The notes under the pieces were generated by a model. The model searched no databases, was not told the DNA's origin, and saw nothing but the letters and a program-made list of their open reading frames with translations. Shown piece after piece: positions 19,232-22,363 of a stretch of 57,283 nt of DNA (its first letter is position 1; each line of letters opens with the position of its first letter). The translations under genes and the position numbers were made by a program. Origin of the DNA: Candidatus Nanohaloarchaea archaeon (GTDB lineage: Archaea > Nanohalarchaeota > Nanosalinia > Nanosalinales > Nanosalinaceae). The stretch spans positions 1 through 57,283 of the forward strand of contig JBDGRE010000023.1 in the NCBI GenBank assembly GCA_042218325.1, in the 5' to 3' direction.

Positions 19232-19510
19232 TCAGGCGCCCGGCCCCTTGAAGCGACCATCTTCCTCGTTATCCGTGTTCCGGAAGACCTCCTCGCGGGA
19301 AAGAGTCTCTTCCGCCTCGTCCTCCCGCGTCTCCGGTTCGACGTCGACAGGGTGGAACGCGGGCTCCACGTCCGAGGTATCTATCTCTTCGAGGGCATCG
19401 AACATCTCAAGTATATCCTCGAAATCCTGCTGGAACTGCTCCGCCTCCTCATCATCGATATCGAGACGTGCATTATCTGCGACCCGTCGGACCTCCTCCA
19501 TATCTACCAC
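19232..19510 (-). CDS. gatC: Asp/Glu-tRNA amidotransferase subunit C
   Basis: EEVRRVADNARL...DTSDVEPAFHP...REDE...GRFKGP. Confidence 0.92.
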   Translation of the reverse strand: MVDMEEVRRVADNARLDIDDEEAEQFQQDFEDILEMFDALEEIDTSDVEPAFHPVDVEPETREDEAEETLSREEVFRNTDNEEDGRFKGPGA

Positions 19511-19586
19511 GCCCCGAGTTTCGCTATCAAGCTTTTTGTATCGCATCCACCGCATGGGAGCAAGAAGCGCCACGAAACGTGAAGTG

Positions 19587-19601
19587 GAAAACATTTATAA
19601 A
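19587..19601 (+). promoter_or_regulatory. Archaeal BRE/TATA box
   Basis: Purine-rich GAAAAC followed by TTTATAAA (19594-19601), ~35 nt before the hairpin array. Confidence 0.55.
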
Positions 19602-19634
19602 CCGGCTCAGGAAATGTTATCTATAAGTTCAGAG

Positions 19635-19760
19635 TGATTGTTTCGCTTTGGGCGGCGAAACAGTCAGACGCGATTCAACTCGTTTGGGCGCGAGTTGAGT
19701 CAGGTTCGAATTGGGCTTCGAACCACGCGAATTGGGCTAACGTGCAAGTTTGGGTAATTG
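19635..19760 (+). ncRNA. Putative structured RNA: five hairpins with UUGGGY loops upstream of ftsZ
   Basis: Hairpins at 19635-19666, 19672-19701, 19703-19724, 19724-19744 and 19745-19760; stems differ, loops are TTGGGC x4 and TTGGGT x1; G-U pairs favour the + strand. Confidence 0.7.
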
Positions 19761-19836
19761 GACTTATCTTCTAAGGTAGAATTACCTATACCGCCTTAAA
19801 AAGGTTAGGTATAGCTATCGCGCAGGACGATACAAA

Positions 19837-20913
19837 ATGGAATCCATCATCGACAACTCACAATCCGGCCAGGAACAGGCAAAAACCTCGAACCTCGACG
19901 ACGTAAAAGATGCTAAGATACTCGTAGTAGGAGTCGGGGGAGCTGGCAACAACCAGGTCACCCGCATCCAGAGAAAAGATGTAGAAGGCGCTGAAACGGT
20001 AGCGATCAATACTGACAAGCAGCACCTTGAGATGTCGTCCGCCGACCGAAAGATACTCATCGGCCGCGACCTGACGAAGGGTCTCGGCGCGGGCGGACAC
20101 CCGCAGAAAGGTGAACGCTCCGCGGAAGAGAACCGCGCAGAACTACGCAAGCTGTTCGCGGAGGCCGACATGGTGTTCGTCACCGCGGGCCTCGGCGGCG
20201 GCACAGGAACAGGTGCGGCACCGGTACTCGCGGAGATCGCGAAGAAGGAAGACTGCATAGTGATAGGAACGGTAACGATGCCGTTCGAGATAGAGGGCGC
20301 ACGGATGAGCAAGGCAGAGGACGGGCTCTACCGGCTGCGGCAGCACGTCGACACCGCCATCGTTATCGAGAACGATAGGCTGCTCGACATCGCAGGCGAC
20401 ATGCCTCTCGACCAGGCGTTCGGCGTCGCCGACGAGCTCATAACGACGATGATAAAGGGCGTCACGGAGACCATCTCCAAGCCGAGCCTCGTCAACCTCG
20501 ACTACGCCGACGTGAAGGCAGTCATGAACGAGGGAGGCGTCGCCGTAGTAGGTTACGGAGAGAGCGACACCAACAACAAGGGAGAAGAGGCGATCCACGA
20601 GGCGATGAGCAATCCGCTGCTCGACGTCGAGTTCTCCGGGGCGAACGGTGCACTCGTACACGTCGCTGGCGGACAGGATCTGACGCTCAACGAGATAAAC
20701 GACGTGGGCCAAACGGTCAAGGACAGACTGGATTCCCAGGCCCAGGTAATCTGGGGCGCCCGCGTGAAGGACGAACTTGAAGGAAAACTCCAGGTAATCT
20801 CCATCGTAACCGGGGTCGAGTCACCGTACATCCTCGGAGACGTGGAGGAAGAGCAGAACACCGAGGTATCAGGCGACGTGAACGACCTCGGACTGGAGGT
20901 AATGGAGCAGTGA
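19837..20913 (+). CDS. ftsZ: Cell division protein FtsZ
   Basis: VGVGGAGNN, GLGGGTGTG tubulin signature, NLDYADV T7 loop, IWGA. Confidence 0.98.
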   Translation: MESIIDNSQSGQEQAKTSNLDDVKDAKILVVGVGGAGNNQVTRIQRKDVEGAETVAINTDKQHLEMSSADRKILIGRDLTKGLGAGGHPQKGERSAEENRAELRKLFAEADMVFVTAGLGGGTGTGAAPVLAEIAKKEDCIVIGTVTMPFEIEGARMSKAEDGLYRLRQHVDTAIVIENDRLLDIAGDMPLDQAFGVADELITTMIKGVTETISKPSLVNLDYADVKAVMNEGGVAVVGYGESDTNNKGEEAIHEAMSNPLLDVEFSGANGALVHVAGGQDLTLNEINDVGQTVKDRLDSQAQVIWGARVKDELEGKLQVISIVTGVESPYILGDVEEEQNTEVSGDVNDLGLEVMEQ

Positions 20914-21859: not shown

Positions 21860-22363
21860 ATGAAGGCTCCAATCTGTAACGTCTGCCTAAAGAGCGACCA
21901 GCTGTGCAAGCAGTGCCAGGAGAAGCTCGATGAAGAACAGATAACGGAAAAAGAGATAGAAGTCTCAAGGATACTGCACGACCTCAGCACCGAGTACGGC
22001 TCGCTGAAGGACTCCTCGATAGAGGGCGTCCACGACGCCGAGAAAGTCGTCGTGGTTATAACAGCGGAGGGCGACGGCGCAAAGGTCGTCGGCCGCAACG
22101 GCGAGATAGTGAAAGAGCTCGCGGACCGTATCGACAAATCCATCCGCGTGGTCGAGGCCGCAGAGGACGACATGGAGGTCATCAAGGGCCTACTGTCTCC
22201 TGCGGAAGTGAAGTCGGTCAACACCGTGTTCATGCCCGACGGCGAGTACAAGAAGATCGTCGTCGACGAGGATTACGAGGGCAAAATCAACCTCAGCGAG
22301 GATGAGTTCGAGGCCATAGTCGAGCGGATAACCGGCACGGAGTACAAGCTGGCGTTCGAGTAA
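21860..22363 (+). CDS. NusA-like KH-domain protein with N-terminal Zn finger
   Basis: PICNVCLKSDQLCKQC plus KH motif VVGRNGEIVKEL. Confidence 0.85.
   Translation: MKAPICNVCLKSDQLCKQCQEKLDEEQITEKEIEVSRILHDLSTEYGSLKDSSIEGVHDAEKVVVVITAEGDGAKVVGRNGEIVKELADRIDKSIRVVEAAEDDMEVIKGLLSPAEVKSVNTVFMPDGEYKKIVVDEDYEGKINLSEDEFEAIVERITGTEYKLAFE

Follow-up and report, generated by a model that had tools for sequence, protein, structure and literature searches.

A covarying array of UUGGGC-loop hairpins lies directly upstream of ftsZ in Nanohaloarchaeota and may be a multivalent regulatory RNA

The window analysed here is the whole stretch of 57,283 nucleotides from a Nanohaloarchaea genome. Its ftsZ gene is separated from a divergent gatC by an intergenic region that carries a hairpin array and several conserved boxes (Table 1). 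The true start of gatC probably lies downstream of its listed ATG. Two genes past ftsZ is a gene for a NusA-like protein with a Zn-ribbon and a KH domain, whose full-length match to NF005013 scores 134.6 bits, under the cut-off of 175. The arrangement recurs: by tblastn, gatC adjoins the array in 26 of 29 relatives' loci (besides L001-L003, which all hold the window's copy), and the KH/Zn-ribbon gene is found two genes past ftsZ in 22 of the 29. The genome has two ftsZ paralogues. No array was found upstream of the other copy (C1:14718-15728), which is 53% identical.

Table 1. Genes, hairpins and conserved sites around the array, in coordinates of the window.
Feature	Position	Strand	Details
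gatC	19232-19594	-	Divergent; Pfam GatC 8.5e-18, residues 46-116
TATA1, TTTATAAA	19595-19602	+	Promoter-like box P1 for the array RNA; 33 nt 5' of H1
Predicted start of array RNA	19624-19627	+	From the genome's TATA spacing and T30-A31 conservation
Hairpin H1	19635-19666	+	13 bp including 2 G-U; loop UUGGGC 19648-19653
Hairpin H2	19672-19701	+	12 bp including 2 G-U; loop UUGGGC 19684-19689; contains ACTCGTTTGGGCRCGAGT
Hairpin H3	19703-19724	+	8 bp; loop UUGGGC 19711-19716
Fourth UUGGGC copy	19732-19737	+	Effectively single-stranded; inside the originally predicted H4 (19724-19745)
Fifth copy, UUGGGU	19750-19755	+	Single-stranded; within the conserved word ACGTGYAAGTTTGGG; inside the originally predicted H5 (19745-19762)
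Conserved block TTCTAAGGTAGAATTA	19769-19784	+	TTCTA invariant in 41/41 aligned sequences (A5)
Inverted repeat CTATACC/GGTATAG	19786-19814	+	Encloses TATA2, CTTAAAAA, 19795-19802
SD-like word GGACGAT	19825-19831	+	5 nt from the ATG; coincides with the start expected from TATA2 (19795 + 30)
ftsZ (358 aa)	19837-20913	+	Pfam Tubulin 3.5e-46, FtsZ_C 6e-32; TIGR00065 9.7e-121
Zn-ribbon/KH NusA-like protein gene	21860-22363		Two genes downstream of ftsZ

The original prediction described five consecutive hairpins in which one loop word is held constant on differing stems. The sequence it quoted and all five TTGGGY words are present. H1, H2 and H3 are strong hairpins, with minimum free energies in isolation of -17.9, -17.6 and -9.4 kcal/mol (z = -6.11, -5.42 and -3.79) that none of 200 shuffles equalled, but the last two units fold no better than shuffled sequence: H4 (z = +0.39) was equalled by 127 of 200 shuffles, and H5 (0 kcal/mol, z = +0.36) by all 200. 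The fourth and fifth words are effectively copies in a single-stranded stretch, and the sequence around the fifth is conserved in relatives. The stems of H1-H3 are uninterrupted and the arms of each are unlike those of the others. The unit with the highest sequence conservation is H2.

The word itself is scarce in the window, with nine TTGGGC observed against 22.4 expected, and four of the nine fall inside 90 nt at the array, where the five units follow one another at spacings of 36, 27, 21 and 18 bp. No other TTGGGY-loop hairpin in the 1.07-Mb genome is as long as any of H1-H3; the runner-up has 7 bp (C31:63913). Folding of 19625-19775 gives -61.6 kcal/mol (z = -5.45) on the + strand versus -41.0 kcal/mol (z = -4.40) on the - strand, so the proposal that G-U pairs favour the + strand holds. 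A helix joining the 5' and 3' ends of the array is not supported (mean z = -0.55, with 6 of 43 sequences below -1.64).

Two promoter-like boxes had been proposed, one about 35 nt upstream of the array and one just before ftsZ, and both are found and conserved. TATA1 is unchanged in 23 of 23 aligned family sequences (alignment A1). The pattern TTTATA[AT]A lies 5' of the ATG by 225-289 nt in family loci (23 of 24) and by 299-381 nt in loci from other families (five of six), and a TATA box stands 30-35 nt 5' of the first unit in every lineage examined. TATA1 is palindromic and might act for the divergent gatC as well. When TATA 8-mers in this genome are measured from their first base to the ATG, the commonest distance is 30-31 nt (14 of 49 cases), and in A1 conservation reaches 90% or more at the corresponding columns, T30 and A31, counted from TATA1. 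Judged from these sequence features, the array RNA would start about 30 nt past TATA1, at the conserved T-A step.

The second box, TATA2, resembles the tRNA promoters of this genome and lies 30 nt 5' of the SD-like word, and therefore ftsZ may own a promoter and the array be a separate transcript. GGACGAT is a candidate ribosome-binding site; GGnTGAT is conserved in A1. The inverted repeat around TATA2 may be an ftsZ-proximal promoter P2 with an operator, or else an RNA hairpin with an A-rich loop. Support for it is moderate: the paired fraction of cells is 73.7%, compared with 65.2% for shuffles and 26-39% for slid controls, and compensatory changes occur in five of seven pairs, a count that 53 of 500 shuffles reach. 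The TTCTA block could be a 3' portion of the array RNA or an upstream site of the second promoter; a similar word comes after the arrays in other phyla. No oligo-U terminator is present after the array or between the two boxes.

These features bear on whether the array is a separate small RNA, transcribed from P1 and ending before the second box, whose UUGGGC loops pair in trans with GCCCAA-type sites. Such an RNA would account for the conservation of both boxes, the second of which is placed as the genome's TATA spacing would require for a separate ftsZ mRNA; the identical exposed loops recall multi-seed sRNAs, and a T-rich TTCT word follows the array. It would nevertheless have to end where the terminator is missing. 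Nor do targets stand out: of 127 occurrences of GCCCAA, 10 (7.9%) are near an ORF start (-40 to +20), compared with 7.1-10.5% for five control words, and TTGGGC is not avoided in the genome, the observed/expected ratio being 0.94 under a fourth-order model. We consider a separate pairing sRNA distinctly unlikely. Two related ideas were tried and rejected. TTGGGC does occur only 127 times where the average 6-mer occurs 524 times, a rarity accounted for by lower-order composition; and GCCCAA is no promoter-associated box, being found in that position in only 2 of 127 cases.

Conservation was assessed in 30 ftsZ loci, 29 from 40 Nanohaloarchaeota relatives together with that of the window's own genome. 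All 30 carry TTGGG repeats upstream of ftsZ and on its strand, whereas CCCAA appears there as single occurrences in only four. A plain MAFFT alignment of the region from TATA1 to the ATG (A1) misaligned H1, and RNAalifold returned 12 pairs from it; A2 was also shifted. A covariance model, R1, was therefore built on nine well-aligned seed sequences (A3). R1 matches the element in 25 of the 30 loci at E <= 1. There is one copy in the window's genome, and across the phylum 38 of 70 genomes give a match at E <= 0.01, a single one in 37 of the 38. The element thus occupies a fixed position upstream of one gene, at one locus per genome with rare exception, throughout the phylum.

The stems covary while the loops stay constant. 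Across the 25 sequences, in an alignment that was fitted by R1 and hence leans towards the structure, and whose members are mutually related, the helix cells that pair amount to 95.6%, while shuffles give 75.3% and slid controls 20-42%. Compensatory changes are seen in 17 of the 22 modelled pairs, and the covariation score of 0.522, against 0.166, was reached by none of 500 shuffles. All three hairpins contribute. H1 has compensatory changes in six of six modelled pairs (97.3% of cells pair) and H3 in eight of nine (95.9%); the seven modelled pairs of H2 include three that are invariant and three with compensatory changes (93.7%).

An element that acts as DNA, namely an array of transcription-factor sites upstream of P2 or a set of cruciforms with the RNA fold incidental, has several observations on its side. 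A promoter-like box follows the array at a distance of 60-190 bp, the word forms plain direct repeats in L162 and L132, and other conserved boxes nearby are DNA-like (TGAACAG boxes and the TTCTA block). The stems, however, differ by unit and by species and yet remain complementary, and a protein that reads the arms would not permit the compensatory changes described above. The modelled helices contain 37 G-U cells versus 12 A-C cells; since A-C cells are the wobble pairs of the other strand, this excess counts for the sense strand. Orientation points the same way, with 266 sense versus 48 antisense motif matches in 50 distinct Nanohaloarchaeota upstream regions, at least three per region. The constant placement of a TATA box before the first unit also counts against the DNA reading, and the unit spacings are out of helical phase. 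We regard a DNA-level element as very unlikely.

A small protein encoded by the ORF at 19634-19774 (46 aa) is hardly credible. One frame is mostly stop-free, the median longest stop-free stretch in 43 relatives being 48 aa, but relatives do not keep to one frame: of the first 14, five read the same H2 sequence as ..VWAR.. and seven as ..RLGAS... Unit spacing varies by non-multiples of three, and there is no conserved start codon. A replication origin with ORB repeats was also considered and rejected. The sole Cdc6_C match lies on another contig (C15:18958-19224), the arms of H1-H3 differ, and in all lineages the element follows ftsZ rather than orc1.

Relatives carry three to nine copies of the word. 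Stems of at least 5 bp flank 58% of the sense matches, compared with 4.7% when the 3' flank is shuffled. The loop is TTGGGC in 166 of 272 stemmed matches (overlaps included), the others being TGGGCA, CGGGCA and similar, and GGA appears solely in TTGGGA variants in a few genera.

Arrays of this kind extend beyond the phylum. In several small-genome archaeal lineages ftsZ is preceded by arrays of TCGGGCA, TCGGCA, TTGGCG or GCGGGC, often as hairpin loops; the arrays found upstream of ftsZ outside Nanohaloarchaeota include GCGGGC (six copies), TCGGCA (six copies, two of them on 12-bp hairpins), TTGGGCA and TTGGCG. In the order to which G074 belongs, 19 of 30 loci have at least three sense and at most one antisense match, with totals of 119 sense versus 20 antisense when overlaps are counted and 88 versus 18 when they are not; one homologous hairpin there has compensatory changes in two of seven pairs (eight sequences). 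No clear array was found in the larger-genome archaea sampled outside the phylum (L144-L161). Counts are raised in L157 and L159, where the units are unconvincing. L144, L151 and L153, all of them without an array, carry an RHH (CdrS-like) ORF upstream of ftsZ.

The loop word drifts between lineages, through UUGGGC, CGGGCA, GUGGGAC, UCGGCA and UUGGCG. This drift counts further against an sRNA that pairs in trans, all of whose targets would need to change in step. In some lineages many copies of the word lie outside hairpins, L162 being an example. Such copies would suit a repeat array acting as DNA as well, and they bear on the reading of the array as a structured leader without a sequence-specific partner, which would stabilize or process the ftsZ transcript or time its transcription and translation, the loop word being retained for folding or as a nuclease site. 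The predicted transcript does begin with the element, and stable hairpins in such a 5' position can protect an RNA; the stems also covary. Stability does not need a constant six-nucleotide word on three unrelated stems with one to three more copies unpaired, though, and L162 and L164 have six copies of the word with little or no stem, so that the word itself is under selection. We judge a partner-free leader unlikely.

Our preferred reading, to which we give an even chance, is that the array is a conserved, structured leader or upstream RNA of the sense strand that offers multivalent sites to a putative factor setting the expression of ftsZ. Transcription would begin about 30 nt past TTTATAAA, near 19625, and the RNA would display UUGGGY five times, in the three loops of H1-H3 and twice in the trailing single-stranded stretch. 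No oligo-U terminator follows, and the RNA would most likely be extended past the TTCTA block and the second A-rich box as far as ftsZ, which would then have a leader of about 210 nt. A second mRNA, with a short leader, may start from the second box. Together the copies would give a trans-acting factor several places to bind; this factor would most likely be an RNA-binding protein recognising single-stranded UYGG(G)C. How many of the four to seven sites are occupied may set the FtsZ output of the transcript, by way of its translation, its stability or read-through, or the RNA may instead titrate the factor. The original prediction was of a multivalent riboregulator; a conserved, structured, sense-strand RNA upstream of ftsZ stands, but only three of its units are hairpins.

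More tentatively, and at somewhat less than even chances, the arrays may represent an ancient riboregulatory system of small-genome archaea of DPANN type, in which three to nine copies of UYGG(G)C, most of them in hairpin loops of a promoter-proximal RNA, are counted by, or titrate, a putative RNA-binding factor and so gate synthesis of one FtsZ paralogue. The class we propose is defined by at least three sense words between a TATA box and ftsZ, covarying hairpins that carry some of them and about one locus per genome, all of which are found here. Its members would also be transcribed from the ftsZ strand, to which promoter spacing and strand asymmetry point indirectly. A wider regulon is not evident: hairpins of at least 7 bp with a GGG[CA] loop number 124 genome-wide, compared with 129-211 for control words, with no enrichment beyond the locus. 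The neighbouring KH/Zn-ribbon protein is not specifically supported as the array binder by sequence comparison. Its family has full-length matches in all four larger genomes where no array was found (G075, G076, G083 and G110). By contrast, two 100%-complete genomes with TTGGCG hairpins, G112 and G089, gave no match to it, and neither did the flanks of the loci outside the phylum.

No Rfam family matches the element. Against Rfam 15 the best match for 19400-20000 of the window is isrB at 21.2 bits (E = 0.17), below the gathering score of 35, and in 15 related loci tRNAs were matched and nothing else. SRP RNA and RNase P RNA were considered and rejected, neither archaeal model matching the array locus; the best matches in the genome, both below gathering scores, are C1:175410-175678 for RF01857 and C24:14570-14927 for RF00373. 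The remark that no such archaeal motif was known agrees with full-text searches of the non-subscription literature, in which no description was found. The array is apparently a conserved RNA element without earlier description. One possible exception to its novelty is STRG.4577.1, a conserved intergenic sRNA of 266 nt from Nanohaloarchaea named in PMC7002113 (Fig. S6A). The available part of PMC11001535 presents directional RNA-seq of a Nanohalococcus consortium with ftsZ not mentioned, and that of 10.64898/2026.10.21.760802 mentions neither ftsZ nor DPANN.

Archaea have very few known conserved RNAs that regulate in cis or bind proteins, and our searches found none for cell division. The array is short, has strong covariation support, occurs at essentially one locus per genome and could readily be proposed as a new RNA family. 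Its link to ftsZ holds phylum-wide, and it has look-alikes in other reduced, host-dependent archaea. It offers a handle for finding an archaeal RNA-binding regulator and a way into how ectosymbiotic archaea couple division to their state. Should the proposed function hold, it would be the first case of conserved control by RNA in archaeal cell division.

One close resemblance is to the bacterial sponge RNAs CsrB and RsmZ, which bind CsrA/RsmE and carry up to about 20 copies of GGA. The likeness in design to such multivalent protein-binding RNAs, noted at the outset, is borne out: both present one short G-rich loop word on unrelated stems, with extra copies in single-stranded linkers. They differ in that the array word is UYGG(G)C and not GGA, in three to nine copies rather than about 20. 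The array is archaeal and has no Rfam match, and no CsrA (Pfam PF02599) was found in five of five genomes (G000, G001, G011, G018 and G074), with E. coli, B. subtilis and T. maritima as positive controls. It also lies in fixed synteny directly 5' of ftsZ and therefore may act in cis.

Control elements on nascent RNA, such as the nut/boxB and put RNAs of phage lambda, are promoter-proximal hairpins. The array could similarly recruit a factor that acts on the transcribing polymerase, and a NusA-like KH gene is its frequent neighbour. There is no homology, however; the array has multiple identical loops where boxB is single, no terminator is evident, and the phyletic pattern of the KH protein departs from that of the array. 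Among regulators of tubulin-like division genes, archaeal CdrS is a DNA-binding transcription factor upstream of ftsZ2, and the bacterial DicF and StfZ are antisense-pairing sRNAs that control ftsZ. They share with the proposed role of the array post-transcriptional or promoter-proximal control of such a gene, but in none of them does a loop word recur over an array of hairpins.

The eukaryotic iron-responsive elements (IREs), the ligands of IRP/aconitase, carry a CAGUGN loop and a bulged C; the transferrin-receptor mRNA has five such hairpins. As in the array, several hairpins on one mRNA share an identical six-nucleotide loop on different stems, and in the IRE system a protein reads the hairpin array and thereby controls the mRNA. 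The array, with its UUGGGC loop, lack of a bulge and position on the 5' side of an archaeal gene, falls outside the IRE class. If our reading is correct, it would be the archaeal counterpart, by analogy rather than homology, of multivalent RNAs such as CsrB and the IREs.

The array upstream of ftsZ is a real, conserved RNA element. Relatives of the window's genome are Nanohaloarchaeota (among them Ca. Nanohalobium, Ca. Nanosalina, SG9 and M3_22), and a search of 40 of them plus the window's genome found ftsZ orthologues in all 41. Thirty ftsZ loci were compared, 29 from relatives and one from the window's genome. At every one, TTGGG occurs two to six times on the ftsZ strand within 450 nt upstream of the gene; CCCAA occurs as a single copy in four of the same 30 regions. 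The flanks of most words pair, with arms that vary among units and among species. A covariance model of the array, R1, made from nine seed sequences (alignment A3), matches upstream of ftsZ in 25 of the 30 loci (E ≤ 1), once in the window's genome (19633-19728, 76.9 bits) and in 38 of the 70 genomes of the phylum in our collection, 37 of them with one match and one with two. Genera with variant loops (CGGGCA, GUGGGAC, UUGGGA) score below the R1 threshold and have arrays visible by eye. An exact triple of TTGGGC words occurs in 33/70 genomes of the phylum, one region each (reversed control, 2/70). No array lies upstream of the other ftsZ paralogue in the window's genome.

In the R1 alignment, whose 25 sequences are fitted to the model and mutually related, standard pairs make up 95.6% of helix cells; shuffling lowers this share to 75.3 ± 1.2% and sliding the partners to 20-42%. 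The covariation score of 0.522, against 0.166, was matched by none of 500 shuffles. Both-sided changes occur at 17 of 22 pairs. The helices contain 37 G-U cells versus 12 A-C. Counted as [TCG][TCG]GGGC, [TCG][TCG]GGC or [TCG][TCG]GGGA, the word family has 266 sense and 48 antisense members in 50 distinct upstream regions (3-9 copies each), and 58% of copies are flanked by arms of 5 bp or more, a share that drops to 4.7% when the 3' flank is shuffled. Selection for a sense-strand RNA that exposes several UYGG(G)C words, mostly on loops, is evident from the data. An array acting purely at the DNA level is unlikely because the stems change in a compensatory way, the wobble pairs are asymmetric and the words favour one strand.

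Five hairpins had been proposed in the window. The first three stand, none of 200 shuffles folding as well as H1 (-17.9 kcal/mol, z -6.1), H2 (-17.6 kcal/mol, z -5.4) or H3 (-9.4 kcal/mol, z -3.8). H4 and H5 are no better than shuffles (z +0.39 and +0.36), which leaves an element of three hairpins and two word copies that are unpaired. The expected preference for the + strand holds: the 151-nt stretch folds at -61.6 kcal/mol on that strand and -41.0 kcal/mol on the other, where the two G-U pairs in each of H1 and H2 become A-C mismatches. H1-H3 are the three longest TTGGGY-loop hairpins of the whole genome. TTGGGC occurs nine times in the window (22 expected), four of them inside the array; special avoidance of the word was rejected as an explanation of its rarity, a composition effect (observed/expected 0.94). 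The genome's only other TTGGGC-loop hairpin of at least 7 bp, gtatatc TTGGGC ggtatac, is on another contig (C31:63906-63925, +).

Features of the gatC-ftsZ intergenic region
Feature	Position	Strand	Remark
gatC	19232-19594	-	divergent from ftsZ
TATA1 TTTATAAA	19595-19602	+	
Hairpin H1, 13 bp, loop TTGGGC	19635-19666	+	
Hairpin H2, 12 bp, loop TTGGGC	19672-19701	+	
Hairpin H3, 8 bp, loop TTGGGC	19703-19724	+	
Fourth word copy TTGGGC	19732-19737	+	
Fifth word copy TTGGGT	19750-19755	+	
Block TTCTAAGGTAGAATTA	19769-19784	+	
Inverted repeat CTATACC/GGTATAG enclosing TATA2 CTTAAAAA	19786-19814	+	
GGACGAT, ahead of the ftsZ ATG	19825-19831	+	
ftsZ	19837-20913	+	

The array, with its UYGG(G)C words, sits directly behind a promoter-like box and ahead of ftsZ. 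In the window's genome (1.07 Mb, 55% G+C, 35 contigs, the window being C16), the distance from a strict TATA 8-mer to the ATG of a long ORF is 30-31 nt in 14 of 49 cases, and so sharp a peak is typical of leaderless starts. TATA1 is identical in all 23 aligned family sequences, and since a T-A step 30-31 nt after its first base is at least 90% conserved in them, a likely start of the array RNA falls near 19625, roughly 10 nt upstream of H1. TATA2 is similar to the boxes preceding tRNA genes of this genome, with a conserved GGnTGAT 30 nt after it and 5-7 nt before the ftsZ ATG. Given these features, both boxes could be promoters. Between the array and TATA2, no stretch of T reaches five nucleotides. 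The repeat around TATA2 has 73.7% of cells paired (shuffles 65.2%, slid controls 26-39%) and some compensatory changes, moderate support for what may be either an operator or a hairpin in the RNA. Other phyla (L135, L136, L138, L175, L187) also have inverted repeats on both sides of the corresponding box, but of unlike sequence. TTCTA within TTCTAAGGTAGAATTA is identical in 41/41 aligned sequences, a TTCTAA-like word follows the arrays of other phyla as well, and the block may act either as a signal for the 3' end or as an upstream site of a promoter.

The start ATG of gatC as listed adjoins the TATA box. Alignment with relatives begins only at about residue 15-28, and so an internal ATG at 19555 or 19546 (region 19546-19594, - strand) is probably the true start. 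Most Nanohaloarchaeota relatives carry two to five TGAACAG/CTGTTCA-type boxes between gatC and TATA1, upstream of TTTATAAA (within L004-L025, e.g. L004, L009, L016, L017); such boxes are missing from the window at 19540-19594. Boxes of a similar kind, GTGAA/TTCAC, are found around the ftsZ promoters of archaea that are not related (L148, L149, L151 and members of the order of genome G074). These boxes may be sites for a cell-cycle transcription factor.

In 61 genomes of other archaeal phyla, the exact triple word is no commoner than chance (two genomes, versus five for the control pattern). Arrays of related words, all on the ftsZ strand, nevertheless precede ftsZ in some of these genomes, each of 0.6-1.2 Mb, a size from which we infer DPANN-type organisms: GCGGGC six times at L132 (11 sense, 0 antisense, overlaps counted), TCGGCA six times at L137, two on 12-bp hairpins, CUGGGCA and UUGGGCA hairpins at L139, UUGGCG hairpins at L135 and L136, and GGGG loops at L138. 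At least three sense matches and at most one antisense match were found at 6/30 loci outside the phylum, one of them (L159) doubtful, and at 19 of the 30 ftsZ loci taken from 41 genomes searched in the order of G074. In that order the words number 119 sense versus 20 antisense with overlaps (88 versus 18 without), and 26% lie on stems of 5 bp or more (control 5.7%). The arrangement matches that of the window: a TATA box 30-35 nt upstream of the first unit, next the array and a word resembling TTCTAA, and after these an inverted repeat enclosing a TTTAAAAAG box, the Shine-Dalgarno word and the ATG. A homologous hairpin keeps its pairing, with compensatory changes at 2/7 pairs (eight sequences), and triple-word clusters fall nearly all at the ftsZ locus, with a few chance-like extras. 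The larger-genome archaea of the sample showed no clear array upstream of ftsZ. Two further observations concern this region. At L169 (G145), 330 nt upstream of the gene, AAGCCCC occurs three times on the ftsZ strand (0 sense, seven antisense matches), and this looks like an inverted or complementary version of the array. In the order of G074 a small conserved hairpin, CATGTG-YNNGG-CACAT, stands directly before the ftsZ Shine-Dalgarno word, 20-60 nt before the ATG (L170, L172, L175, L182, L184, L187 and others).

We consider it highly probable that the array is a functional structured sense RNA. In the simplest mechanism, a factor reading single-stranded UYGG(G)C would bind several sites at once, either controlling the ftsZ transcript in cis or being titrated by the array RNA; we would give such multivalent binding an even chance. 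Pairing of the loops with other RNAs in trans is less likely, because sites complementary to the loop word are not enriched at gene starts and the word drifts among lineages. For multivalent binding an obvious candidate is a neighbour, a 167-aa protein (21860-22363, +) that has a NusA-type KH domain and, at its N terminus, a Cys-rich segment like a Zn-ribbon (full-length NF005013 match, under cut-off). Its gene lies two genes downstream of ftsZ in 22/29 relatives' loci, but its distribution does not follow that of the array.

Several other identities were rejected: the best SRP RNA and RNase P RNA matches lie elsewhere in the genome, the only orc1/cdc6 gene, expected of a replication origin, is on another contig, and a 46-aa ORF across the array has no conserved frame. 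The element falls outside described Rfam families, with no Rfam 15 match at the window locus and only tRNAs matched at 15 related loci. A search of the open-access full-text literature found nothing on a hairpin array upstream of ftsZ, and the element is apparently undescribed. The original structural observation was largely right and its functional idea, a multivalent riboregulator, appears plausible. CsrA was found in none of five genomes searched. A halite metatranscriptome study reports that a Nanohaloarchaeon has a conserved intergenic sRNA of 266 nt (PMC7002113); should this be the array RNA, it would supply evidence of expression, and the transcript would already have been seen, though uncharacterised.
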